Below are positions 1 to 12,968 of a DNA stretch of 12,968 nt, in pieces. Below the pieces are notes generated by a model. That model worked only from the letters and a program-made list of their open reading frames with translations. It did no database searches and was not told the origin of the DNA. The DNA lies in NCBI RefSeq assembly GCF_003334355.1, contig NZ_QOWP01000052.1; one strand, written 5' to 3'. Positions within the stretch are counted from its first letter, which is position 1. Every line of letters starts with the position of its first letter. A program made the position numbers and the translations under genes. The stretch is from Escherichia coli (GTDB lineage Bacteria > Pseudomonadota > Gammaproteobacteria > Enterobacterales > Enterobacteriaceae).

Positions 1-125
1 TGCAGTTGCCATGTTTTACGGCAGTGAGAGCAGAGATAGCGCTGATGTCCGGCAGTGCTTTTGCCGTTACGCACCACGCCTTCAGTAGCGGAGCAGGAAG
101 GACATCTGATGGAAATGGAAGCCAC
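1..125 (-). CDS. insA: IS1 InsA (transposition repressor / N-terminal transposase part), 5' portion only; partial at window edge
   Basis: Minus-strand translation from GTG (complement of 123-125) gives [42 protein letters not shown], the InsA zinc-finger N-terminus (CxxC...CxxC), recalled from memory. The gene runs off the window start. Confidence 0.8.
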
Positions 126-180
126 GCAAGCACCTTAAAATCACCATCATACACTAAATCAGTAAGTTGGCAGCATTACC
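1..180 (-). mobile_element. IS1 insertion sequence, left (IRL/insA) end; element continues beyond the window start
   Basis: Reverse complement of 1-180 reads GGTAATGCTGCCAACTTACTGATTTAGTGTATGATGGTG... (the IS1 left inverted repeat) followed by the insA start and coding sequence. The terminal inverted repeat maps to 158-180, with the element boundary at 180/181. Confidence 0.9.
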
Positions 181-691
181 CGCCAATATATCCGCCGCCC
201 AAAATACCTAAATGCCCAGGCAATTCTTTTAGATTAAGTAATCCGGTGCTGTCATATACTCCTGGCGTGGTGGTAATTCCAGGAATTGGCGGAACCACGG
301 TTTGTGCACCGGTATTAATAAAAATTTTCTCGCCATGAATTTCCAGATTTGCCTCAGGCCGATGAACACGCAGGCTATGATTATTGATAAACTCCGCCTG
401 GCCGTCGATCACGTCGATATTGGGCATATCCGCAAGATTATGAAAATTCTTATTACGTAAAAAATTAACCACTTCATTTTTACGCTGTATGGCTCGGACA
501 AAATCTGTGTGCTGCTGTGCGTCATGAACCAATGTTTTGGTTGGGATGCAGCCGATATTAATACAGGTCCCGCCATACATTGCATTTGATTGTTCGATGA
601 GAGCCACACGCCAACCTGCTTTTGCCAGCGTGACGGCTAATGTTTTTCCAGCCTTGCCAAAACCAATAATCACTGCCTGATATTTATTCAT
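176..691 (-). pseudogene. rclA: rclA/ykgC (FAD-dependent pyridine nucleotide-disulfide oxidoreductase) truncated by the IS1 insertion; only about 171 N-terminal codons remain
   Basis: Translation from ATG (complement of 689-691) gives MNKYQAVIIGFGKAGKTLAV...GGTCINIGCIPTK...GILGGGYIGG, then a stop immediately inside the IS1 IRL. An AGGAAA Shine-Dalgarno sits upstream. The Rossmann GxGxxG motif and the redox-active CxxxxC are present, but the C-terminal ~60% of this ~440-aa family is absent. The upstream in-frame ATG at 718 is probably not the true start. Confidence 0.8.
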
Positions 692-916
692 GATGATTTC
701 CTGTCGAAACGCGTTCATTTTACATCATGACTATAGACGCAAAAGAGCAAATAACATTTCTTCACAACGCTTGATATTTTGTCTTATCGTCTGGTATTTT
801 CTTTTTCTTAATCAGAATCACAAAACAAAAATCATGATTAACTATTTGATGGTATTAGATTAGTTATTTACTAAGATTGTTGGTGTTTGTAATCAAAAAC
901 CACTCAGGAGTCTGAT
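692..916. promoter_or_regulatory. Divergent rclA-rclR intergenic promoter region (AT-rich)
   Basis: A 225-bp AT-rich spacer lies between divergently oriented start codons. By established knowledge RclR acts on the rclA promoter in this interval. Individual -10/-35 elements were not confidently placed by eye. Confidence 0.45.
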
Positions 917-1771
917 ATGGATGCCCTTAGCCGTTTGTTGATGCTTAACGCTCCACAAGGAACGATCGATAAGAATTGCGTGTTAGGAAGTGACTGGCAG
1001 CTTCCACATGGTGCCGGGGAATTATCGGTTATTCGTTGGCATGCGTTAACGCAAGGAGCGGCGAAGCTGGAAATGCCGACGGGGGAGATTTTTACATTAC
1101 GCCCGGGAAATGTGGTCCTGCTACCACAAAATTCAGCCCATCGCCTGAGTCATGTCGATAATGAATCAACCTGTATTGTCTGCGGCACTCTTCGGCTGCA
1201 ACATTCGGCGCGTTATTTTTTAACGTCTTTGCCGGAAACGCTGTTTTTAGCACCGGTTAACCACAGCGTAGAATATAACTGGCTGAGGGAGGCGATCCCG
1301 TTTTTACAACAGGAATCCAGATTGGCAATGCCGGGAGTGGATGCACTGTGTAGCCAGATCTGCGCTACATTCTTTACCCTCGCGGTGCGTGAGTGGATTG
1401 CACAGGTTAATACTGAGAAAAACATTCTCAGTTTGCTTCTGCATCCACGTCTTGGTGCGGTAATACAGCAAATGTTGGAAATGCCAGGACACGCCTGGAC
1501 CGTCGAATCGCTGGCCAGCATCGCCCACATGTCCCGGGCAAGTTTTGCCCAGCTTTTCCGTGATGTTTCCGGAACCACGCCGCTGGCTGTATTAACAAAG
1601 TTGCGTCTACAAATAGCGGCCCAGATGTTTTCCCGGGAAACGCTCCCTGTTGTGGTGATCGCTGAGTCAGTAGGCTATGCCAGTGAATCATCTTTTCACA
1701 AGGCGTTTGTCCGCGAGTTTGGTTGTACCCCGGGAGAATATCGGGAAAGGGTCAGACAGCTTGCACCCTGA
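917..1771 (+). CDS. rclR: AraC-family transcriptional activator RclR (reactive chlorine-responsive regulator; YkgD)
   Basis: 284-aa ORF with an AGGAG Shine-Dalgarno 6 nt upstream of the ATG. The C-terminal sequence shows the AraC helix-turn-helix signature (...SFAQLFRDVSGTTPLAVLTKLRLQIAAQMF...VGYASESSFHKAFVREFGCTPGEYR). The N-terminal domain carries cysteines, consistent with RclR. Position is divergent from rclA. Confidence 0.9.
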   Translation: MDALSRLLMLNAPQGTIDKNCVLGSDWQLPHGAGELSVIRWHALTQGAAKLEMPTGEIFTLRPGNVVLLPQNSAHRLSHVDNESTCIVCGTLRLQHSARYFLTSLPETLFLAPVNHSVEYNWLREAIPFLQQESRLAMPGVDALCSQICATFFTLAVREWIAQVNTEKNILSLLLHPRLGAVIQQMLEMPGHAWTVESLASIAHMSRASFAQLFRDVSGTTPLAVLTKLRLQIAAQMFSRETLPVVVIAESVGYASESSFHKAFVREFGCTPGEYRERVRQLAP

Positions 1772-2296
1772 ATAAAACCGCCAGAAATCAGGGCAAAGAT
1801 AATCCGCATTCCGGGAGTTGTGAGCCTTTCAACTATTTCTATTTCCAACGGTGGTTTGGGCTTTATATATTTTTTCTGATGGACTCTAGCTCAGTTTTTA
1901 AATAAAAATGCAAACTAAATTGCTTCAATTAAATAAAATCCCGACTATTACTTGATACGTGATTATTGTCGGTGATTTTTTTGTACACCATCAGTGTATA
2001 TCTCAATAACCCCTGAATAAGTAGCTCTGAATAGGTATAAGGGATGTAGCCATTTTTAAATGGATTTCTTATGCCAAAAATGATCGTCGATTTCCCCATA
2101 AAATGTGAGCGATGCCGAAAGAAATAAAATTAGTTATTGCATTTGACGTTTGGATGAAAGATTATCATTTGTCATACAAATGAGGGGTGGTATGTTGCTA
2201 GCCAATTAAAAAGAACGCCATATTTATTGATGATTGATCCCCCGGTGGGGGGGAAACATCGGGCATAAATGGGCATGAAGTAATGGAGTATTAGTT

Positions 2297-3016
2297 GTGA
2301 ATGTCAATTTCTTTGTCACCTGTATTGGTGACGCCCTGAAATCAAGAATGGCACGAGACTCCGTGCTGCTACTGGAAAAACTCGGCTGTCGCGTAAATTT
2401 CCCGGAGAAACAGGGATGCTGCGGTCAGCCTGCGATCAATAGCGGTTATATCAAAGAAGCGATTCCAGGGATGAAAAATCTGATCGCCGCACTGGAGGAT
2501 AACGACGATCCCATTATTTCACCGGCTGGCTCTTGCACCTATGCCGTAAAAAGTTACCCGACGTATCTGGCGGATGAACCTGAATGGGCATCACGTGCCG
2601 AAAAGGTTGCCGCGCGTATGCAGGATCTCACCTCTTTTATTGTTAATAAATTAGGGGTAGTCGATGTAGGTGCCAGTTTGCAAGGGAGAGCTGTGTATCA
2701 CCCATCTTGTAGCCTGGCCCGTAAGCTGGGAGTGAAGGACGAGCCACTTACGCTGCTGAAAAATGTGCGTGGACTGGAGCTGTTGACCTTTGCTGAACAG
2801 GATACCTGCTGCGGATTTGGCGGCACGTTCTCGGTCAAAATGGCCGAAATATCCGGCGAGATGGTGAAAGAAAAGGTTGTGCACCTGATGGAAGTCCGCC
2901 CTGAGTATTTAATTGGTGCTGACGTGAGTTGCCTGCTGAACATCAGTGGGCGATTACAACGGGAAGGGCAGAAAGTCAAAGTGATGCATATTGCTGAAGT
3001 GTTGATGAGCCGCTGA
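2297..3016 (+). CDS. ykgE: LutA-like Fe-S oxidoreductase subunit (cysteine-rich CCG-domain protein) YkgE
   Basis: 239-aa ORF starting at GTG 2297, with GGAG 7 nt upstream. It carries cysteine-rich motifs (CCGQP, CCGFGG) typical of LutA/GlpC-type CCG domains. It is the first gene of a tightly packed three-gene operon. Confidence 0.88.
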   Translation: MNVNFFVTCIGDALKSRMARDSVLLLEKLGCRVNFPEKQGCCGQPAINSGYIKEAIPGMKNLIAALEDNDDPIISPAGSCTYAVKSYPTYLADEPEWASRAEKVAARMQDLTSFIVNKLGVVDVGASLQGRAVYHPSCSLARKLGVKDEPLTLLKNVRGLELLTFAEQDTCCGFGGTFSVKMAEISGEMVKEKVVHLMEVRPEYLIGADVSCLLNISGRLQREGQKVKVMHIAEVLMSR

Positions 3017-3026
3017 GGATATAAAG

Positions 3027-4454
3027 ATGTCGATCAAAACCAGTAATACAGATTTTAAGACACGCATCCGTCAGCAAATTGAAGATCCGATCATGCGCAA
3101 AGCGGTGGCAAACGCGCAGCAGCGTATTGGGGCAAATCGGCAAAAAATGGTCGATGAATTGGGGCACTGGGAGGAGTGGCGCGATCGGGCCGCCCAGATA
3201 CGTGATCATGTTCTGAGTAATCTCGACGCTTATCTGTACCAGCTCTCAGAAAAAGTGACGCAAAACGGCGGTCACGTCTATTTTGCAAGAACCAAAGAAG
3301 ACGCTACCCGCTACATTTTACAGGTTGCCCAACGCAAAAATGCCCGGAAGGTGGTGAAATCTAAATCGATGGTGACCGAAGAGATTGGTGTCAATCATGT
3401 GTTGCAGGATGCTGGCATTCAGGTGATTGAAACCGATCTGGGTGAATATATTCTCCAGCTGGATCAAGATCCGCCATCTCATGTTGTGGTCCCGGCAATT
3501 CATAAAGATCGCCATCAGATCCGTCGAGTGCTACACGAACGTCTGGGCTATGAGGGGCCGGAAACGCCTGAAGCGATGACCTTATTCATCCGGCAAAAAA
3601 TCCGCGAAGATTTCCTCAGTGCTGAAATAGGTATTACCGGCTGTAATTTCGCGGTGGCAGAGACCGGTTCGGTATGCCTGGTGACCAATGAAGGTAATGC
3701 GCGAATGTGTACCACGCTGCCTAAAACGCATATTGCAGTGATGGGAATGGAGCGTATTGCCCCCACGTTTGCCGAGGTAGATGTATTGATCACCATGCTG
3801 GCGCGCAGTGCCGTTGGTGCACGTTTGACGGGATACAACACCTGGCTGACAGGACCGCGCGAAGCTGGGCACGTTGATGGTCCTGAAGAGTTTCATCTGG
3901 TTATTGTCGATAACGGGCGTTCTGAGGTGCTGGCCTCTGAATTTCGGGATGTGCTGCGCTGTATTCGCTGCGGGGCTTGTATGAATACTTGTCCGGCATA
4001 TCGCCATATTGGCGGTCATGGATATGGCTCTATTTATCCAGGGCCAATTGGTGCGGTGATTTCTCCGCTACTTGGCGGCTATAAAGATTTTAAAGATTTA
4101 CCCTACGCCTGCTCTTTATGCACAGCTTGTGACAACGTGTGTCCGGTGCGTATTCCGCTGTCAAAACTGATTTTGCGTCATCGTCGGGTGATGGCTGAAA
4201 AAGGGATCACCGCAAAAGCAGAGCAACGGGCGATAAAAATGTTCGCTTATGCCAATAGTCATCCAGGATTGTGGAAAGTCGGGATGATGGCCGGTGCTCA
4301 TGCGGCAAGCTGGTTTATCAATGGCGGCAAAACACCACTCAAATTTGGCGCGATTAGCGACTGGATGGAAGCACGCGATCTTCCTGAAGCTGACGGAGAG
4401 AGTTTCCGTAGTTGGTTTAAGAAACATCAGGCGCAGGAGAAAAAGAATGGATAA
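3027..4454 (+). CDS. ykgF: LutB-like iron-sulfur protein with two 4Fe-4S ferredoxin motifs, YkgF
   Basis: 475-aa ORF beginning 10 bp after the ykgE stop. It contains two ferredoxin-type clusters, CIRCGACMNTCP and CSLCTACDNVCP. Confidence 0.9.
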   Translation: MSIKTSNTDFKTRIRQQIEDPIMRKAVANAQQRIGANRQKMVDELGHWEEWRDRAAQIRDHVLSNLDAYLYQLSEKVTQNGGHVYFARTKEDATRYILQVAQRKNARKVVKSKSMVTEEIGVNHVLQDAGIQVIETDLGEYILQLDQDPPSHVVVPAIHKDRHQIRRVLHERLGYEGPETPEAMTLFIRQKIREDFLSAEIGITGCNFAVAETGSVCLVTNEGNARMCTTLPKTHIAVMGMERIAPTFAEVDVLITMLARSAVGARLTGYNTWLTGPREAGHVDGPEEFHLVIVDNGRSEVLASEFRDVLRCIRCGACMNTCPAYRHIGGHGYGSIYPGPIGAVISPLLGGYKDFKDLPYACSLCTACDNVCPVRIPLSKLILRHRRVMAEKGITAKAEQRAIKMFAYANSHPGLWKVGMMAGAHAASWFINGGKTPLKFGAISDWMEARDLPEADGESFRSWFKKHQAQEKKNG

Positions 4455-5142
4455 TCGAGGCGAATTTTTGAATAACGTTGCTCAGGCACTGGGTCGCCCG
4501 CTGCGACTTGAACCGCAAGCAGAAGATGCGCCGCTTAACAACTATGCTAACGAGCGGCTTACCCAACTTAACCAACAGCAGCGCTGTGACGCGTTTATTC
4601 AGTTTGCCAGCGATGTTATGTTGACGCGCTGTGAGCTGACCAGCGAGGCGAAGGCGGCAGAAGCTGCAATACGTCTGTGTAAAGAGCTGGGAGATCAGTC
4701 GGTCGTGATTAGCGGTGACACGAGGCTGGAGGAATTGGGGATTAGCGAACGTTTGCAGCAGGAATGCAATGCCGTTGTTTGGGATCCGGCGAAAGGTGCC
4801 GAGAATATCTCGCAGGCAGAGCAGGCTAAAGTGGGTGTTGTGTATGCTGAATATGGTTTAACCGAATCGGGAGGCGTGGTTCTTTTTTCCGCCGCCGAGC
4901 GCGGGCGTTCATTGAGCCTGCTCCCGGAATATTCTCTTTTTATCCTGCGTAAAAGCACTATCCTGCCGCGTGTAGCGCAACTCGCAGAAAAATTGCATCA
5001 GAAAGCGCAGGCCGGTGAACGAATGCCTTCCTGCATTAACATCATTAGCGGCCCCAGTTCAACGGCGGATATTGAGCTTATCAAAGTCGTCGGAGTTCAT
5101 GGCCCGGTGAAAGCGGTGTATCTGATTATTGAGGATTGTTGA
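4447..5142 (+). CDS. ykgG: LutC-like protein YkgG (third subunit of the LutABC-type complex)
   Basis: The ATG at 4447 lies inside the sequence AAGAATGGATAA, overlapping the ykgF stop by 8 nt, which indicates translational coupling. The product begins MDNRGEFLNNVAQALGRP... and is 231 aa. The longer track ORF from 4294 is an in-frame upstream extension inside ykgF. Confidence 0.85.
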   Translation: MDNRGEFLNNVAQALGRPLRLEPQAEDAPLNNYANERLTQLNQQQRCDAFIQFASDVMLTRCELTSEAKAAEAAIRLCKELGDQSVVISGDTRLEELGISERLQQECNAVVWDPAKGAENISQAEQAKVGVVYAEYGLTESGGVVLFSAAERGRSLSLLPEYSLFILRKSTILPRVAQLAEKLHQKAQAGERMPSCINIISGPSSTADIELIKVVGVHGPVKAVYLIIEDC

Positions 5143-5248
5143 GAGAGATATGAAGTCTGGACATAAACCTGAAGAAGGCATACGAGGTTGAAAATAGCGT
5201 TTAGGACAACCTGACTTAACCCCGTTCCGTCATGGTTATGCTGCTCTT

Positions 5249-5289
5249 CTGTAAATATCCTGGTATTACCAATGCCAGGATATTTACAG
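5249..5289. repeat. Perfect 15-bp inverted repeat (CTGTAAATATCCTGG / CCAGGATATTTACAG) with an 11-nt loop, in the convergent ykgG-ykgH intergenic region
   Basis: Read directly from the sequence: left arm 5249-5263, right arm 5275-5289. It could act as a bidirectional terminator or a protein-binding palindrome, but no U-tract follows on either strand. Confidence 0.6.
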
Positions 5290-5384
5290 TGAAAAAGACA
5301 GGCATCCATTCCTGAAAACGGGTTCCCTTCCCGGTCATTGTCACTTCAGCTTTATACAGGCACTCTCTATCAAAATGTTGTTTA

Positions 5385-6053
5385 TTACTGCCCAGAGTTT
5401 TGTTGGTATTCATCTACCATTTTTTTGACAAGGCAAAACATTACAGAAATTACAATGCTTAGAAAAAATCCCAGAGCCAGGCAAATGGCAGCAGGGTATT
5501 TATTTTTTATTTCTGGTGAGCTTATAGTTACACAGCCATCACCGTTCGGATACAATGACCAGTTCCTGGTCAGGTATATCATTTTTGTATAAAGCTCACT
5601 GTTAATTGCTGAAGGCGTTTGTATCTCATCGAGAACTTGCCTGCCATTATGATATTCTGACGCATACCATTTGATAATAGAGGCCTGCACGCGAGATATT
5701 TCCTCTTCAGCAGTTGGTAAAGCTCTCTTATCTCCTGACCATTCCAGCCTTATTTCTCTGTTCTTGACATCTGGGCTGGTGTGAAAAAATGTAGTAATTC
5801 GCTGAATAACATCTTCAGTCATTGTAGTCTGACAGGCAAAATTATTATTGCTATCACAGCTAACAAGTATACCTGGCGTTGTCTGGTTTATTTTTAGGCT
5901 GTAAATCACTTTTATATTGTCTTTATTGATATACAGAAACAACAGCACCATAGCCATACATATAGCCATAATAAAAAGGATAACACGAATCTTTTTCTTC
6001 AGATAAAATAAAATCTCAATCAGATCGATATCCTGTTTGATTTGTTCACGCAT
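5385..6053 (-). CDS. ykgH: Predicted inner-membrane protein YkgH
   Basis: 222-aa ORF with a single strongly hydrophobic N-proximal segment (ILFIMAICMAMVLLFLYI) followed by a hydrophilic domain. It is convergent with ykgG and matches the K-12 gene order. Confidence 0.75.
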   Translation of the reverse strand: MREQIKQDIDLIEILFYLKKKIRVILFIMAICMAMVLLFLYINKDNIKVIYSLKINQTTPGILVSCDSNNNFACQTTMTEDVIQRITTFFHTSPDVKNREIRLEWSGDKRALPTAEEEISRVQASIIKWYASEYHNGRQVLDEIQTPSAINSELYTKMIYLTRNWSLYPNGDGCVTISSPEIKNKYPAAICLALGFFLSIVISVMFCLVKKMVDEYQQNSGQ

Positions 6054-6265
6054 AATATATCCAGAGAATAAAATCTGTCGCAGATAAGGTTGTATTAATA
6101 GTCTGTATCAGGAATGTTCGGGTTAAATATCAGCAAAAAGCCCGCATCATGAATACTGGATATGAAGCATGAGAGTTACCTCAGTGTTTATATAAGGATT
6201 CGGTCCCCCTCTCTGGAACGGTAACTCTCAATCTGATCGGTTCCTGCGTTAGTTCACATCACGAC

Positions 6266-7936
6266 TCATTTTTTCGCTCTCACCGGCATCCCATTTGCCA
6301 CAAAATATCCCGTCGTGCTCCTCGGCAGCGCTTCCTGTCCACGAATCATATCCGCTATTTTCTCGCCAATCATAATTGTCGTGGCGTTCAAATTCCCGGT
6401 GATAATCTGCGGCATAATCGACGCATCCACCACACGCAGGCCTTCTAACCCGTGTACGCGGCCTTCGCCGTCAACCACGGACATCTCGTCGTAACCCATT
6501 TTGCAGGTACCGCACGGATGGAAGGCGGTTTCGGCGTGGTTACGCACGAACTCATCGAGCTGTTCATCCGTCTGGCATTCGACACCGGGGCTGATTTCGC
6601 GGCCACGATACTGATCCAGCGCGGGTTGATGCATGATCTCGCGGGTGATGCGAATTGCGTCGCGGAACTCCTGCCAGTCCTGCTCGTGCGACATGTAGTT
6701 AAACAGAATCGCCGGATGCTGGTGCGGGTCGCGGGATTTAATCCGCACATGCCCACGGCTTGGCGAGCGCATTGAGCCGACGTGGCACTGGAAACCGTGC
6801 TCTTTCACTGCATTCGAGCCGTTATAGTTAATCGCTACTGGCAGGAAATGGTACTGAATATTCGGCCACGCAAATTCCTCACGGCTGCGAATAAATCCAC
6901 CTGCTTCAAAGTGGTTGCTGGTTCCAACGCCAGTGCCGCCAAACAGCCACTCCGCACCGATTTTCGGCTGGTTCCACCACTGCAGGGCAGGGTAGAGGGA
7001 AACCGGTTCTTTGCACTCATATTGCAGATACATCTCCAGATGATCCTGAAGATTTTCGCCGACGCCGGGTAATTCATGCACCAGCGGAATATCAAACTCC
7101 GCCAGCAGTTCAGCGTTGCCGACGCCGGAGCGTTGCAGGATCTGCGGTGAGGCAATCGCGCCTGCACATAACAGCACTTCTTTGTTGGCCGTTGCGCGGG
7201 TTGGGATGGTGCTGTCGCCTTCCAGCCATTCGACGCCCACCGCGCGTTTGCCGTCAAAAATGATGTGATCGGTCATAGCGTGAGTACGAATGGTCAGGTT
7301 AGGACGCGATTTGGCCTGATCGAGATAGCCACGCGCGGTGCTGGCGCGACGGCCCTGCGGCGTGACGGTGCGATCCATCGGACCAAAACCTTCCTGCTGA
7401 TAACCGTTGAGATCGTCCGTGCGCGGGTAGCCCGCCTGCACGCCCGCTTCAATCATCGCTTCAAACAGCGGATTGACGCCGGGTTTGGAGGTAGTGACGC
7501 TCACCGGGCCATCACCGCCGTGATAGTCGTTTTCACCCATATCGCGAGTCTCGGCCTTGCGGTAGTAGGGCAGGCAGTCGAGGTAGCTCCAGTTCTCCAG
7601 ACCGGGTTCTTGCGCCCAGTTATCGAGATCCAGCGCATTGCCACGGATGTAGCACATGCCGTTGATCAGCGACGATCCACCCAGACCTTTACCGCGTCCG
7701 CACTCCATGCGGCGGTTATTCATAAACGGTTCAGGTTCCGTTTCATAGGCCCAGTTGTAGCGTTTACCCTGTAGCGGGAATGCCAGGGCAGCGGGCATCT
7801 GGGTGCGGAAGTCAAAGCGATAGTCCGGGCCGCCCGCTTCAAGCAGCAGCACGGAGGTATTCGGATCTTCAGTCAGACGGGTAGCGAGAACGTTGCCGGC
7901 TGAGCCGGCACCAATAATGATGTAGTCAAATTGCAA
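6266..7936 (-). CDS. betA: Choline dehydrogenase BetA (GMC oxidoreductase, FAD-dependent)
   Basis: The product starts (M)[20 protein letters not shown]..., with the FAD-binding GxGxxG motif. The start is a TTG (complement of 7934-7936) lying 5 nt downstream of a perfect AGGAGG. The track ORF to 7981 over-extends upstream into betB. Confidence 0.9.
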
Positions 7937-7949
7937 ATAAACCTCCTGG

Positions 7950-9422
7950 TTAGAATATGGACTGGAATTTAGCCATCTCAACCTGGATGGACTTCACCTG
8001 GGTGTAACTCTGGAGCGTCATCACGCCGTTCTCGCGACCAATGCCGGAGTGTTTGTAGCCGCCAACGGGCATCTCTGCCGGGGATTCGCCCCAGGTGTTG
8101 ATCCAGCAAATACCCGCTTCCAGCTGATGAATGACGCGATGCGCGCGGTTCAGGTCCGCTGTCACGATGCCCGCCGCCAGGCCGTAGTCGGTATCGTTAG
8201 CGCGGCGAATGACTTCGTCTTCCGACTCGTAGGTCAGAATGGACATCACTGGCCCGAAGATCTCTTCACGCACGATGGTCATATCGTCGCTGCAATCGGT
8301 GAACACTGTCGGTGCAACCCATGCGCCGTTATCGAAGCCATCGCCTTTCAGTACATCGCCGCCGCACAGTACGCGCGCGCCTTCCTCTTTGCCTTTGGCG
8401 ATATAGCGCAGCACGTTATCGCGATGCGGGAAGCTGACCAGCGGGCCGAAGTTAGTTTGCGGATCGAAAACGTCGCCCGCGCGAATGCGCTCAACGCGCG
8501 CCAGAATTTTCTGCTCAAATGCGGCTTTGCATTTCGCCGGAACGAAGACGCGGGTGCCATTGGTACACACCTGACCGGAGCTGAAGAAGTTTGCCATCAT
8601 GGCGATATCGGCGGCGAGATCGAGATCCGCATCATCGAAAACGATCAGCGGTGATTTACCGCCCAGTTCCATGGTCACTTCTTTCAGGGAAGAGGCCGCC
8701 GAGTTAGCCATCACTTTTTTGCCGCTGGCGACACCGCCGGTAAATGACACTTTGGCAATGCCCGGATGCTCGGTCAGATATTGCCCGGTCTCCGCGCCCA
8801 CGCCCGGCAACACGTTAAATACGCCGTCCGGCAGGCCCGCTTCGCTGTAAATTTCAGCCAGCTTTAACGCGGTAAGCGGGGTAACTTCGCTCGGTTTGAA
8901 AATCATTGCGTTGCCTGCCGTCAGCGCCGGGGCGGATTTCCACAGGGCAATCTGGATCGGGTAGTTCCATGCGCCAATCCCTGCCACTACGCCCAGCGGT
9001 TCGCGGCGGGTATACACAAAGGACGTTTCACGCAACGGGATCTGGCTGCCTTCCAGCGCCGGGATCAGCCCGGCGTAGTACTCCAGCACGTCCGCACCGG
9101 TAACGATATCGACGGTTGAGGTTTCCGAATATGCTTTTCCGGTGTCGAGGGTTTCCAGTTTTGCGAGTTCGTCATTGCGTTCACGCAGAATATCAACGGC
9201 CCGACGCAGAATACGCGAGCGCTCCATGGCGGTCATCGACGCCCAGATTTTTTGCCCCTGCTGGGCGCTTTTCACGGCGCGATCGACATCCTCGCGCCCG
9301 GCGGCCTGCACGGTCGCCAGCACGTTACCGTTGGCCGGGTTAATGGTCTCGAAGGTGCGACCGCTGGTGGCGGAGGTATAACCACCATGTATATAAAGCT
9401 GCTGTTCTGCCATTCGGGACAT
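7950..9422 (-). CDS. betB: Betaine-aldehyde dehydrogenase BetB (NAD-dependent ALDH family)
   Basis: 490-aa product [15 protein letters not shown]..., with the catalytic ALDH motifs (...ELGGKSP..., ...[13 protein letters not shown]...). The ATG (complement of 9420-9422) is preceded by a GAGGAG Shine-Dalgarno. The gene ends 13 bp upstream of the betA start. Confidence 0.9.
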
Positions 9423-9435
9423 CACGTCTCCTCGG

Positions 9436-10023
9436 TTAATCGGTGGGTAGATGCTGAGTGATAAAGTGGCGGGTCAGGGAATTAGCGCGGGTTTTATCCA
9501 GCGGTTTGCCGCTCAGAGCCGCGCGCAGCCATAATCCATCAATCAGCGCGGCCAGGCCGTAGCCCGCTTCCTGTGCCTGTTCGCGCGGCAATTCGCGACG
9601 AAACTCGCTCACCAGATTCGACAGCAAGCGGCGGCTGCTGACCTGCTGTAAACGATAGAGCATCGGCTGATGCATACTGCTGGCCCAGAACGCCAGCCAG
9701 GCTTTCATCGCCGCACTGCTCACCTGCGTTTCATCGAAGTTTCCGCCAACAATCGCCTGTAATCGCTGCTCTGCACTGCCCTGCGGAAGTGCATGTAATC
9801 GATTCAAAACCGCGTCACGCAGCTGACTGGTGATATCGCGCATGGTTGCTTCCAGCAGACCATTTTTGTCCCTGAAATAGTGGCTGATGATCCCCGTAGA
9901 AACGCCTGCACGGCGGGCGATCTGCGCGATCGTTGCATCGTGCATGCCCACTTCATTTATTGCTTCCAGTGTGGCGTCGATCAGTTGTCTGCGCCGGATC
10001 GACTGCATCCCCAATTTGGGCAT
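9436..10023 (-). CDS. betI: TetR-family choline-responsive repressor BetI
   Basis: 195-aa product [50 protein letters not shown]..., with an N-terminal TetR helix-turn-helix. The track ORF begins 6 codons upstream at 10041. The start at 10023 is preferred because it has a GGAG 7-10 nt upstream and matches the length I recall for this family. Confidence 0.85.
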
Positions 10024-10151
10024 TTTCGCCACTCCATTCATCAGCGGTGTTTATCTATTAAAGCGGTTATTGATTGGACGTTCAATATAAAATGTGTCTT
10101 AATTGTTACGAATTTGATTTTAAATAGTAACAATAACAGTGGGGATACTGG
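10024..10151. promoter_or_regulatory. Divergent betI / betT promoter-operator region, including an imperfect dyad TTATTGATTGGACGTTCAATATAA (10067-10090)
   Basis: A 128-bp AT-rich spacer lies between the divergent starts. It contains the half-sites ATTGGAC / GTTCAAT in inverted orientation, typical of a TetR-family operator. By established knowledge BetI binds a dyad in this interval. Confidence 0.6.
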
Positions 10152-12185
10152 ATGACAGACCTTTCACACAGCAGGGAAAAGGACAAAATCAATCCGGTGG
10201 TGTTTTACACCTCCGCCGGACTGATTTTGTTGTTTTCCCTGACAACGATCCTGTTTCGCGACTTCTCGGCCCTGTGGATTGGCCGCACGCTGGACTGGGT
10301 TTCTAAAACCTTCGGTTGGTACTATCTGCTGGCGGCAACGCTCTATATTGTCTTTGTGGTCTGTATCGCTTGTTCGCGTTTTGGTTCGGTGAAGCTCGGG
10401 CCAGAACAATCCAAACCGGAATTCAGCCTGCTGAGTTGGGCGGCGATGCTGTTTGCTGCCGGGATCGGTATCGACCTGATGTTCTTCTCCGTAGCCGAAC
10501 CGGTAACGCAGTATATGCAGCCGCCGGAAGGCGCGGGACAGACGATTGAGGCCGCGCGTCAGGCGATGGTCTGGACGCTGTTTCACTACGGCTTAACCGG
10601 CTGGTCGATGTATGCGCTGATGGGCATGGCGCTCGGATACTTTAGCTATCGTTATAATTTGCCGCTCACCATCCGCTCGGCGCTGTACCCGATCTTCGGT
10701 AAACGGATTAACGGGCCGATAGGTCACTCAGTGGATATTGCAGCGGTGATCGGCACTATCTTCGGTATTGCCACTACGCTCGGTATCGGTGTGGTGCAGC
10801 TTAACTATGGCTTGAGCGTACTGTTTGATATTCCCGATTCGATGGCGGCAAAAGCGGCACTGATCGCCTTGTCGGTGATCATCGCCACTATCTCGGTGAC
10901 ATCCGGTGTCGATAAGGGCATTCGCGTGTTATCGGAGCTTAATGTCGCGCTGGCGCTGGGATTGATCCTGTTCGTGTTGTTTATGGGCGACACTTCGTTC
11001 CTGCTTAATGCACTGGTGCTGAATGTTGGCGACTATGTGAATCGCTTTATGGGCATGACGCTCAACAGTTTTGCCTTCGACCGTCCAGTTGAGTGGATGA
11101 ATAACTGGACGCTCTTCTTCTGGGCATGGTGGGTGGCATGGTCGCCGTTTGTCGGCTTGTTCCTGGCGCGTATCTCGCGTGGGCGTACCATTCGCCAGTT
11201 CGTGCTGGGCACGTTGATTATTCCGTTTACCTTCACGCTGTTATGGCTCTCGGTGTTCGGCAATAGCGCGCTGTATGAAATCATCCACGGCGGCGCGGCA
11301 TTTGCCGAGGAAGCGATGGTCCATCCGGAGCGCGGCTTCTACAGCCTGCTGGCGCAGTATCCGGCGTTTACCTTTAGCGCCTCCGTCGCCACCATTACTG
11401 GCCTGCTGTTTTATGTGACCTCGGCGGACTCCGGGGCGCTGGTGCTGGGGAATTTCACCTCGCAGCTTAAAGATATCAACAGCGACGCCCCCGGCTGGCT
11501 GCGCGTCTTCTGGTCGGTGGCGATTGGCCTGCTGACGCTCGGCATGCTGATGACTAACGGGATATCCGCGCTGCAAAACACCACGGTGATTATGGGGCTG
11601 CCGTTCAGCTTTGTGATCTTCTTCGTGATGGCGGGGTTGTATAAATCTCTGAAGGTAGAAGATTACCGCCGTGAAAGTGCCAACCGCGATACCGCACCGC
11701 GACCGCTGGGGCTTCAGGATCGCCTGAGCTGGAAAAAACGTCTCTCGCGCCTGATGAATTATCCGGGCACGCGTTACACTAAACAGATGATGGAGACGGT
11801 CTGTTACCCGGCAATGGAAGAAGTGGCGCAGGAGTTGCGGTTGCGCGGCGCGTACGTGGAGCTAAAAAGCCTGCCACCGGAAGAGGGACAGCAGTTGGGT
11901 CATCTGGATTTGTTGGTGCATATGGGCGAAGAGCAAAACTTTGTCTATCAGATTTGGCCGCAGCAATATTCGGTGCCGGGCTTTACCTACCGCGCACGCA
12001 GCGGTAAATCGACCTACTACCGGCTGGAAACCTTCCTGTTAGAAGGCAGCCAGGGCAACGACCTGATGGACTACAGCAAAGAGCAGGTGATCACCGATAT
12101 TCTTGACCAGTACGAGCGGCACCTTAACTTTATTCATCTCCATCGTGAAGCGCCGGGCCATAGCGTGATGTTCCCGGACGCGTGA
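10152..12185 (+). CDS. betT: High-affinity choline transporter BetT (BCCT family)
   Basis: 677-aa ORF with multiple hydrophobic transmembrane segments and a tryptophan-rich BCCT signature region (...WTLFFWAWWVAWSPFVGLFLARISRGRTIRQF...). A long hydrophilic C-terminal tail follows. Confidence 0.92.
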   Translation: MTDLSHSREKDKINPVVFYTSAGLILLFSLTTILFRDFSALWIGRTLDWVSKTFGWYYLLAATLYIVFVVCIACSRFGSVKLGPEQSKPEFSLLSWAAMLFAAGIGIDLMFFSVAEPVTQYMQPPEGAGQTIEAARQAMVWTLFHYGLTGWSMYALMGMALGYFSYRYNLPLTIRSALYPIFGKRINGPIGHSVDIAAVIGTIFGIATTLGIGVVQLNYGLSVLFDIPDSMAAKAALIALSVIIATISVTSGVDKGIRVLSELNVALALGLILFVLFMGDTSFLLNALVLNVGDYVNRFMGMTLNSFAFDRPVEWMNNWTLFFWAWWVAWSPFVGLFLARISRGRTIRQFVLGTLIIPFTFTLLWLSVFGNSALYEIIHGGAAFAEEAMVHPERGFYSLLAQYPAFTFSASVATITGLLFYVTSADSGALVLGNFTSQLKDINSDAPGWLRVFWSVAIGLLTLGMLMTNGISALQNTTVIMGLPFSFVIFFVMAGLYKSLKVEDYRRESANRDTAPRPLGLQDRLSWKKRLSRLMNYPGTRYTKQMMETVCYPAMEEVAQELRLRGAYVELKSLPPEEGQQLGHLDLLVHMGEEQNFVYQIWPQQYSVPGFTYRARSGKSTYYRLETFLLEGSQGNDLMDYSKEQVITDILDQYERHLNFIHLHREAPGHSVMFPDA

Positions 12186-12197
12186 TTGTTATTGCAT

Positions 12198-12234
12198 AAA
12201 ACAGCGCCATGTCTGCATATGGCGCTGTTTCTCC
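12198..12234 (+). terminator. Putative rho-independent terminator of betT
   Basis: The hairpin AAACAGCGCCAT-(gtctgcat)-ATGGCGCTGTTT starts 13 bp after the betT stop and is followed by TTTCTCC. The stem is GC-rich and perfect over 12 bp. Confidence 0.6.
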
Positions 12235-12891
12235 TACCTCTTGATACGTTATATCTATACGGTTAAGCCCTTAGTATCTATTGATGATTACCAGACAACA
12301 GATAATAAAAAAGAAAAGAACTATTGCAGCCCAAAACCTACATTTGGGCTGTTGCGAATGTTCAATAAGTTTAGTCTTATTTAATGTAAATATTGCTGAT
12401 CATTTGAAATGACGCATTATTCATGAGAAATGTGTATCGTAAATCAACTGAAATTAACGCAACCATTTGTTATTTAAGGTTTAATTATCTGTGTGTGATA
12501 TTTTATTGAATGTTTTAAATATTGTTTTTATTGGCATTGCTATAATATTGGTTATCATTTGCTGAATGGATTCAGTCTTAATGAGTGGGTTTTTAAGGGA
12601 CAGGCATAGAGTAATGATACGTATGCATAACCAACATCTTTACTCATTATGTCATTGAATGTTGACGCTATGTGTTTATGAGGGAGAGGTATTTTCAGTT
12701 GATCTGGATTGTTAAATTCATATAATGCGCCTTTGCTCATGAATGGATGCCAGTATGTAGTGGGGAATTATAAATATTGAAATAGTCCAACTACTTCTTT
12801 ATTACCAAAAATGAGTATCTGAATTTTAATATTGCATTCTTGCGTGATTATCTCCTGAGTTTGACTTGTGATTACCTTTTTAAGGTATTTA

Positions 12892-12968
12892 GGTAATGAC
12901 TCCAACTTATTGATAGTGTTTTATGTTCAGATAATGCCCGATGACTTTGTCATGCAGCTCCACCGATT
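12892..12968 (-). mobile_element. IS1 insertion sequence, right (IRR/insB 3') end; element continues beyond the window end
   Basis: 12892-12968 reads GGTAATGACTCCAACTTATTGATAGTGTTTTATGTTCAGATAATGCCCGATGACTTTGTCATGCAGCTCCACCGATT, which is the IS1 IRR read inward. It has the same orientation as the copy at 1-180. Confidence 0.9.
12907..12968 (-). CDS. insB: IS1 InsB (transposase) C-terminal end; partial at window edge
   Basis: Minus-strand translation gives ...SVELHDKVIGHYLNIKHYQ*, with the TAA stop (complement of 12907-12909) lying inside the terminal inverted repeat, as in IS1. Confidence 0.7.
   Translation of the reverse strand, partial: SVELHDKVIGHYLNIKHYQ

Follow-up and report, generated by a model that had tools for sequence, protein, structure and literature searches.

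Native bet/ykg DNA between two IS1 ends in an Escherichia coli contig: very probably two unrelated IS1 events

The stretch of DNA analysed here (the window; 12,968 bp) corresponds, in reverse complement and without any difference, to the whole E. coli contig QOWP01000052.1 (GCA_003334355.1). It opens and closes within IS1, and the 12,711 bp between the two IS1 ends contain rclA', rclR, ykgEFG, ykgH, betABI, betT and yahV, as deduced from the open reading frames and the annotation of E. coli PSS-12. On the minus strand, rclA' (181-691) comprises, by translation, codons 1-170 of the gene for the RclA oxidoreductase, cut by the left IS1. Its frame runs to a stop codon inside IS1 (176-178), and its counterpart in PSS-12 is annotated as an FAD-dependent oxidoreductase pseudogene. 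The plus strand then carries rclR (917-1771), followed by ykgE (2297-3016), ykgF (3027-4454) and ykgG (4447-5142), the last three (2297-5142) with Pfam CCG/LUD domains, whereas ykgH (5385-6053), betA (6266-7936), betB (7950-9422) and betI (9436-10023) lie on the minus strand and betT (10152-12185) again on the plus strand. BetA differs from its PSS-12 counterpart at one residue (339), and in betA two neighbouring bases (6922-6923) carry private substitutions. The remaining DNA up to the right IS1 (12186-12891) is AT-rich betT-pdeL intergenic sequence (61-68% AT), which holds yahV on the plus strand (12491-12565) and, adjoining the IS1, the palindrome TACCTT-N3-AAGGTA (12873-12887; inverted repeat I4). 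Neither the truncation of rclA nor the presence of yahV had been recorded in the initial annotation of this DNA. A scan of the window against Rfam gave no matches.

The left end (1-180, minus strand) is the IRL side of a variant-type IS1, identical at 180/180 positions to a 768-bp IS1 of PSS-12 (L001 6001-6768) and at 164/180 to IS1A. Its minus strand encodes the N-terminal 41 codons of InsA (1-125), a 41-aa partial gene matched by PF03811, and its IRL occupies 158-180. The right end (12892-12968, minus strand) consists of the first 77 nt from the IRR end, with the IRR at 12892-12914, and matches IS1A as well as the PSS-12 IS1 at 77/77 positions of their IRR ends; it encodes the last 19 codons of InsB (...IGHYLNIKHYQ and the stop codon), with a weak PF03400 match. 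Both ends carry the approximately 23-bp imperfect terminal inverted repeats of the IS1 family (GGTAATG...), which agree with one another at 19/23 positions when the IRL is reverse-complemented. The insA/insB' frames of the family (InsA zinc ribbon, DDE_Tnp_IS1) are present in part in the window, and a full-length 768-bp IS1 with frameshifted transposase, orthologous to the left copy, is present in PSS-12. The initial annotation, which had the stretch opening and closing inside minus-strand IS1 with boundaries at 180/181 and 12891/12892, inner flanks CGCCAATAT (181-189) and AGGTATTTA (12883-12891), and direct orientation of the two ends around the block, is borne out on each of these points, both fragments reading minus.

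A second assembly, the ECOR-04 contig LYBG01000036.1, equals window 99-12956 with zero mismatches and contains both junctions, which are therefore not chimeric artefacts. The terminal 77-mers at both ends of the contig are de Bruijn branch nodes common to other IS1 copies. The right IS1 stub is exactly 77 nt, i.e., one k-mer. On the left, the assembler came to a halt in the k-mer formed by positions 1-77, which the IS1 end has in common with other copies of the repeat. A second, IS1B-type copy in PSS-12 (L001 23145-23912) equals the left IS1 from IS1 position 104 on, and its last difference from it lies at IS1 position 103, corresponding to window position 78. The contig ends are k=77 repeat-collapse break points, and the bracketing by IS1 is largely an effect of assembly. 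The window is very probably a complete short-read contig from an ECOR-04-like phylogroup-A E. coli chromosome, ended by the assembler on both sides in collapsed IS1 repeats. It is a maximal unbranched path between shared 77-mers, which does not differ from the standard behaviour of short-read de Bruijn assemblies. In IS-rich genomes every short-read contig terminates in some IS copy, and the statement that a segment is bracketed by IS1 tells little about mobility before the outer flanks and the relatives have been looked at. From the assembly graph, and presupposing a k=77 de Bruijn assembler, the two IS1 copies are apparently non-identical.

The 12.7-kb rclA'-rclR-ykgEFGH-betABIT-yahV segment occupies its native place in the chromosome. 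Of 5,426 complete genomes, 4,992 have at least 80% of the window at a single locus, in synteny. Only about 8 SNPs and one indel separate the window from PSS-12. A 1-bp indel lies at window position 2207. The two IS1 junctions occur together in none of the 5,426 complete genomes; the apparent 100% coverage of the window in the best-matching of them arose from both IS1 stubs matching one nearby IS1. Among 72,556 plasmids, the carriers of the block were limited to large F' plasmids of laboratory origin, chromosomes that had been mislabelled and a 68.5-kb chromosomal segment devoid of IS1 brackets, and no IS1-bracketed copy of it was found. The one natural-looking plasmid match, pMTY18781-4, proved to be an uninterrupted chromosomal segment.

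The left junction is present exactly in PSS-12 only among the 5,426 complete genomes, and furthermore in seven other contigs, all of 10-20 kb, one of them a Logan short-read contig. The event that produced it is the older of the two and is common to PSS-12 and several other isolates. The outer flank of this IS1 was read in PSS-12, the window's strain being known at the inner junction. In PSS-12 the outer flank GTATGAAAG does not match the inner flank CGCCAATAT, so that there is no target duplication, and compared with ECCHD184 the IS1 replaces 3,328 bp (L017 7410-10737) comprising ykgA, rclC, rclB and the 3' part of rclA. A single IS, no duplication and a loss of contiguous DNA are the marks of an IS1-promoted adjacent deletion, with one side joined to DNA 3,328 bp away, and the window has exactly the same inner junction. 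The left IS1, with its divergent IRL-proximal 103 bp, joins the 3' flank of fdeC to mid-rclA, and the junction arose either by IS1-promoted adjacent deletion or by recombination between two former IS1 copies. In contrast to the classical adjacent deletion, this junction fits an original insertion on either side of the IS1 as well as recombination between two copies. Strain 042 also has an IS1 beside fdeC, which inserted separately and simply at a distance of 29 bp and does not mark where the left IS1 was first inserted. The window's strain has lost the RclABC reactive-chlorine defence, and rclR is an orphan regulator.

The right IS1 is the younger event. None of the 5,426 complete genomes has exactly this junction, which was observed in the window and ECOR-04 alone. 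IS1 is missing at 12891/12892 in PSS-12, ERR10766742, ERR10677920 and SRR24680064, all of which have the left junction or a lineage-specific YahD' marker. Since relatives with the left junction read through the right site, the two IS1 were gained at different times. In PSS-12 the uninterrupted right site reads ...TTAAGGTATTTA/GCGTAACTG and lies 168 nt before the pdeL ATG.

These results bear directly on the reading that IS1-block-IS1 is a Tn9-like composite transposon, moved or movable as a bet/ykg unit. Two IS copies in direct repeat do surround a passenger (1-180 and 12892-12968), and IS1 pairs can mobilise the DNA between them, as in Tn9 and the r-determinant of NR1. However, the inner flanks run on as native neighbours, namely rclA and the betT-pdeL spacer, and both the chromosomal synteny and the plasmid search place the unit inside its native context, with no IS1-bracketed plasmid copy. 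Furthermore, relatives lacking IS1 at 12891/12892 carry the left IS1 only, which speaks against joint acquisition, the left IS1 of PSS-12 is a deletion junction, and the two copies appear non-identical. The presence of the left IS1 without the right one in relatives, together with native synteny, means that two separate events took place and not the movement of one unit. A composite transposon is therefore highly improbable and, as the origin of the arrangement, already refuted. The argF region of E. coli K-12 (Tn2901), Tn9 and the NR1/R100 r-determinant are IS1-flanked segments or composites which, like the window, have direct 768-bp IS1 copies around several kb of ordinary genes and are likewise substrates for RecA-dependent excision or amplification. 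The window differs from them in that the passenger is native, the IS1 copies differ in age and apparently in sequence, one of them sits at a deletion junction without target duplication, and no transposed or plasmid-borne unit was found.

It had also been proposed that both fragments are the ends of a single IS1, in which case the contig would be a 13.5-kb circle made up of the IS1 and the block, such as may be excised when an IS1 transposes intramolecularly. Alternatively, the junctions would reflect tandem amplification of the block. Both window ends do fit a single PSS-12 IS1 (180/180 and 77/77), just such a circle would be expected if the left IS1 transposed intramolecularly, in the deletion mode, to 12891, and one IS1 would account for the single-copy variant IRL end in the graph. 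Yet the block is devoid of replication functions, and the same contig came from two independent assemblies and is thus stably inherited. Moreover, the path from flank to IS1 is unbranched, so that few reads, if any, can follow betT-pdeL without interruption, and the left junction of PSS-12 is chromosomal. A circle is biologically unlikely, with very little probability left to it or to the tandem form.

The arrangement is very probably explained by an assembler-ended contig, a native block and two unrelated IS1 events, and as such the finding is an ordinary one, already known. Of the earlier interpretation, the bracketing by IS1 and the role of the IS1 pair as a recombination substrate stand, while mobilisation as a composite element finds no evidence: the block is native, relatives have the left IS1 only, no plasmid-borne unit is found and the IS1 events are separate in time. 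The comparison of flanks suggested at that stage, by which a matching duplication at each copy would indicate two independent simple insertions, turned out differently for the left IS1, since in PSS-12 it has a 3,328-bp deletion in place of a duplication (GTATGAAAG versus CGCCAATAT).

The region upstream of pdeL is a hot spot for IS1. Minus-oriented IS1 lies near the right site in 24 genomes (21 at a coverage of at least 80%, plus LD27-1, H7 and C1) and plus-oriented IS1 in 12 genomes, the latter recovered with a chimeric plus-orientation query; a seeming bias toward minus orientation was an effect of query design. About 15 distinct IS1 sites were found among 20 mapped loci, within about 145 bp (12842-12985, in window-equivalent coordinates, as are all hot-spot positions); the left part of this zone falls within the betT-pdeL DNA of the window. 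Simple insertions with 8-9-bp duplications make up 14 of these 20, while the other six (E8, GmM062, VTB96816v, HH107, CFSAN064036 and PK8276) have pdeL-side deletions. Adjacent deletions similar to that at the left junction are seen upstream of pdeL in these six genomes and in EC5931 and AVS0247. A hot spot for mobile genetic elements near pdeL has been described (Durrant et al., bioRxiv 10.1101/527788), and the right IS1 agrees with it in lying in intergenic DNA of 61-68% AT upstream of an H-NS-silenced gene, where about 15 IS1 insertions, plus- as well as minus-oriented, were observed here as independent events within about 145 bp. The exact site of the window (12891/12892) differs, being occupied in no complete genome.

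The right junction would stem from the insertion of a second IS1 copy, probably IS1A/B-type at its IRL end, at a point 168 bp ahead of the pdeL start codon. It is most probably a simple insertion duplicating AGGTATTTA (12883-12891), the inner flank and expected 9-bp target duplication, a prior taken from the hot-spot cases (about 70% of those mapped) and not from observation at this site. The interrupted sequence would then read ...AGGTATTTA-IS1 (768 bp, IS1A/B-type IRL)-AGGTATTTAGCGTAACTG...pdeL. A possible though rather doubtful variant is that a secondary rearrangement ends at the right junction. It would be an IS1-promoted adjacent deletion that extends into pdeL and the yah genes, or else an inversion of pdeL-yahD brought about when a nearby IS1 in inverted orientation, such as that at yahD/prpD in PSS-12, transposed intramolecularly. 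In the six deletion cases the bet-side junction is kept, and for three of them the bet-side site is also occupied by a simple insertion elsewhere, in a different genome. Under the Shapiro replicative model, inversion from the plus-oriented yahD/prpD IS1 of PSS-12 would be reasoned to give the orientation of the window (flank-IRR, minus). In addition, assemblies of the window's sublineage gave no match to the YahD'-IS1 fusion protein of PSS-12, but this absence may reflect incomplete indexing or a sublineage that never had the yahD IS1, and in the inversion variant YahD' would in fact be preserved. The 14 mapped cases with clean duplications likewise weigh against a rearrangement. Protein look-ups with the RclA' fusion, the YahD' fusion and PSS-12 FdeC matched only relatives or PSS-12 itself, and beyond pdeL the sublineage of the window may differ from PSS-12 or be rearranged. 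Such a rearrangement would be a sub-variant of the two-event explanation, with the block still native and the IS1 events still independent.

In the window's strain an IS1 interrupts the regulatory region of pdeL, which encodes a c-di-GMP phosphodiesterase; this region is reportedly H-NS-bound. The palindrome next to the IS1 is a candidate distal PdeL box (CIB), and the published texts searched gave no CIB box sequence against which to match it. Should the palindrome correspond to that box, with which an H-NS site overlaps, a simple insertion would place a further 777 bp between it and the promoter with its Cra/PdeL proximal box, made up of 768 bp of IS1 and a 9-bp duplication, and GATTACCTTTTTAAGGTATTTA would be a candidate PdeL target. 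The cooperative, bistable autoregulation of PdeL, which sets c-di-GMP heterogeneity and sensitivity to phage N4, would in that case be broken. An analogy for pdeL is offered by bgl and flhDC, whose AT-rich, H-NS-silenced regulatory regions likewise receive IS insertions. Selection for regulatory mutations, as opposed to mere target preference, is a possible but unlikely explanation for the recurrence of IS1 upstream of pdeL, the copy in the window included.

The direct 768-bp IS1 repeats, 12.7 kb apart, are a possible substrate for RecA-dependent deletion or duplication of the block, as is any IS pair, and the claim to this effect is supported as a possibility by the confirmed direct repeats and by established IS1 and RecA biology. 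The predicted fdeC-IS1-pdeL recombinant of this pair, a single-IS1 deletion junction proposed as a check, was not found, and the search for it returned the independent deletions of EC1 and AVS0247. In AVS0247, 15,016 bp including the bet block are lost with a single IS1 at the junction, and similar IS1-linked bet losses occur in EC1 and EC5931. The bet operon is absent from about 240 of the 5,426 complete genomes, for which EC1- and EC5931-type junctions offer no general account, being present in two genomes and one genome, respectively, at a coverage cut-off of at least 80%. The suggestion that the bet region is prone to loss in some lineages is therefore upheld for IS1-linked loss as such, but these losses are sporadic and not lineage-wide. 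The fdeC-pdeL zone is one of repeated IS1 insertion, in which sporadic IS1-linked deletions occasionally take the bet osmoprotection operon.

The window begins and ends in IS1 termini in direct orientation, as the initial annotation had proposed. The left stub (1-180), whose minus strand encodes the InsA N-terminus, is identical at 180/180 positions to the IRL side of the 768-bp IS1 in PSS-12 (L001), the closest complete E. coli genome, versus 164/180 for IS1A. The right stub (12892-12968), encoding the final 19 InsB residues on its minus strand, matches the IRR end of both IS1A and the PSS-12 IS1 at 77/77 positions, and the 23-bp terminal repeats of the two stubs match each other at 19/23. 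Since both fragments are minus-oriented, the IS1 copies form direct repeats, separated by 12,711 bp and with the inner flanks already described, CGCCAATAT at the left and AGGTATTTA at the right. The bracketed segment carries rclR, ykgE, ykgF, ykgG, ykgH, betA, betB, betI, betT and yahV; in addition, the left IS1 cuts rclA short after codon 170 (rclA', 181-691), a truncation not noted initially. The observation is confirmed and its interpretation partly supported: this is ordinary IS1 biology viewed through a contig boundary, and is already known in kind.

The window corresponds exactly, in reverse complement, to the entire 12,968-bp contig QOWP01000052.1 of draft assembly GCA_003334355.1, which was located by an exact protein match to the window's private BetA variant, used as a lineage marker. 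Its ends behave like branch nodes of a k=77 de Bruijn graph. The right stub measures exactly 77 nt. The left IS1 last differs from an IS1B-type copy in PSS-12 (L001 23145-23912) at IS1 position 103 (window 78), so that window 1-77 is the first 77-mer common to other IS1 copies. With such branch-node ends, any unique segment between IS copies would be flanked by IS1 in this way; a window opening inside one IS1 and closing inside another does contain IS1 ends, but this is the pattern expected of a repeat-broken assembly. Both IS1 junctions are real, because a second assembly (LYBG01000036.1), made from ECOR-04 (PMC13293308), equals window 99-12956 with zero mismatches. The strain of the window is thus ECOR-04 or a near-clone.

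The block between the IS1 ends is ordinary chromosome, with at least 80% of the window found in one place in 4,992 of 5,426 complete E. coli genomes. Across 12.7 kb, about 8 SNPs and a single indel separate the window from PSS-12; the window has a private adjacent double substitution in betA (6922-6923, TT versus CA) and a 1-bp deletion in an A-run of the rclR-ykgE spacer (2207), and the two BetA proteins differ at one residue (339). Mobilisation as a composite element, suggested earlier, is not supported, the passenger being native and the two IS1 copies of different age. Among plasmids, the block turns up only on laboratory F' plasmids, on mislabelled chromosomes and within a 68.5-kb stretch of chromosome that has no bracketing IS1. 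A circle of the block and a single IS1, also considered earlier, would be compatible with both window ends, and is exactly what the left IS1 would produce by deletion-type intramolecular transposition into 12891; however, the block lacks replication functions, two independent assemblies yielded the contig and the path from flank into IS1 has no branch, making such a circle highly improbable.

Among the 5,426 complete genomes, the exact IS1/rclA' junction is found only in PSS-12, while the RclA'-IS1 fusion ORF occurs on 7 more contigs, each 10-20 kb long (e.g. Logan contig ERR10766742_82). In PSS-12 (L001 5984-6768) the left IS1 borders the 3' flank of fdeC on its outer side, with no target duplication (the 9-mers GTATGAAAG and CGCCAATAT differ). 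Compared to the intact genome ECCHD184, 3,328 bp are replaced, comprising ykgA, rclC, rclB, one pseudogene and 816 bp at the 3' end of rclA. The left IS1 sits at a deletion junction and is no simple insertion. As this loss takes rclC, rclB and part of rclA but leaves rclR intact, established knowledge predicts that the reactive-chlorine resistance operon is inactivated, RclABC is absent and RclR is an orphan regulator. The junction is conserved between ECOR-04, from the long-established ECOR reference collection, and PSS-12, isolated in Ecuador. The left IS1 itself is a mosaic, with 15 differences from the IS1B-type copy in its first 103 nt (window 78-180) and identity over positions 104-768, a pattern suggestive of recombination or gene conversion among IS1 isoforms.

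The exact right junction is present in 0 of the 5,426 complete genomes, and 12891/12892 is uninterrupted in PSS-12, ERR10766742 (16.4-kb contig), ERR10677920 and SRR24680064, relatives with either the left junction or a lineage-specific YahD'-IS1 marker. Since these relatives lack it, the right IS1 arose later, nested in the left-IS1 lineage. The marker derives from the plus-oriented IS1B-type copy of PSS-12, which joins yahD to a truncated prpD (yahE...prpC deleted) and yields a YahD' protein whose terminal ...VMLPTY is read from the IS1 IRL; a search of assemblies from the window's sublineage did not recover this marker. As 103 nt of variant-specific IS1 sequence precede the shared 77-mer in the left stub, this variant end occurs only once in the assembly graph, and the right IS1 is thus expected to have a different IRL-proximal sequence. 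The two copies would then be non-identical, unless only one IS1 exists.

The right IS1 is inserted in a spacer of 61-68% AT, 168 nt before the pdeL ATG. This spacer is a hot spot for IS1 insertion, and an MGE hot spot near pdeL is already on record (Durrant et al., bioRxiv 10.1101/527788). A nearby IS1 is present in 36 of 5,426 complete genomes, minus-oriented in 24 (21 at a coverage cut-off of at least 80%, with LD27-1, H7 and C1 added) and plus-oriented in 12. Twenty of these loci were mapped, projecting positions onto window numbering, also past its end, with a -1 correction for the indel at 2207. Minus-oriented copies lie at 12842, 12846, 12865, 12870, 12913, 12933, 12950, 12973 and 13079, and plus-oriented copies at 12865, 12866, 12903, 12939, 12974, 12985 and 13079. 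About 15 distinct sites in both orientations fall within about 145 bp (12842-12985; L001 19431-19574), for which about 2 IS1 copies would be expected if some 63,000 chromosomal IS1 places were evenly spread, a crude expectation ignoring clonal inheritance. Simple insertions with 8-9-bp duplications account for 14 of the 20 loci; the other 6 keep the bet-side junction with a deletion into pdeL and yah genes. The same bet-side site can be simple in one genome and carry the deletion in another (12842, SW07091/HH107; 12865, EC4/VTB96816v; 12973, EC590/GmM062). On these priors, the right IS1 is probably a simple insertion duplicating AGGTATTTA, or, failing that, an insertion after which an adjacent deletion or inversion took place. 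The ERR10677920 and SRR24680064 contigs start (L029/L030 1-29) with what we take to be an IS3 terminal repeat, just downstream of betT (about 12333 in window numbering), which would be another IS event in the betT-pdeL spacer.

Directly abutting the right IS1 is a perfect 6-bp inverted repeat, TACCTT-N3-AAGGTA (12873-12887), whose right arm shares bases with the expected duplication AGGTATTTA. Nearer to pdeL, 41-47 nt before its ATG (window-equivalent 13013-13019), the related half-site AGGTAAT is adjoined by a Cra-like GAATCGA motif. PdeL reportedly binds an imperfect palindrome that is located far upstream of its promoter and overlaps an H-NS site. The inverted repeat is a candidate for this distal PdeL box (CIB); if it is the box, the insertion would uncouple it from the promoter.

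The directly repeated pair is a recombination substrate in principle; the fdeC-IS1-pdeL product predicted for it was sought and not found. In about 240 of the 5,426 complete genomes bet is missing, and the IS1 junctions found do not account for most of these. The proposed proneness of bet to loss holds sporadically, through three independent IS1-linked deletions that take out the rcl-ykg-bet block entirely or for the most part. In AVS0247 (L040 4228-5869) one IS1 joins mid-ykgA to window-equivalent 12614 with 15,016 bp lost; the junctions are ykgA'-IS1-pdeL in EC1 (L039 3950-4716) and betA'-IS1-pdeL in EC5931 (L041 9001-10311); at a coverage cut-off of at least 80%, each occurs in only 1-2 genomes. 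These losses look like IS1-adjacent deletions rather than crossovers between two flanking copies. Elsewhere in this region, E. coli 042 (L042 4472-5239) carries a simple IS1 insertion in the last codons of fdeC (duplication GGCGAGGAG), and in many other genomes an IS1 lies close to either the ykgH-betA spacer or the 3' end of betA.
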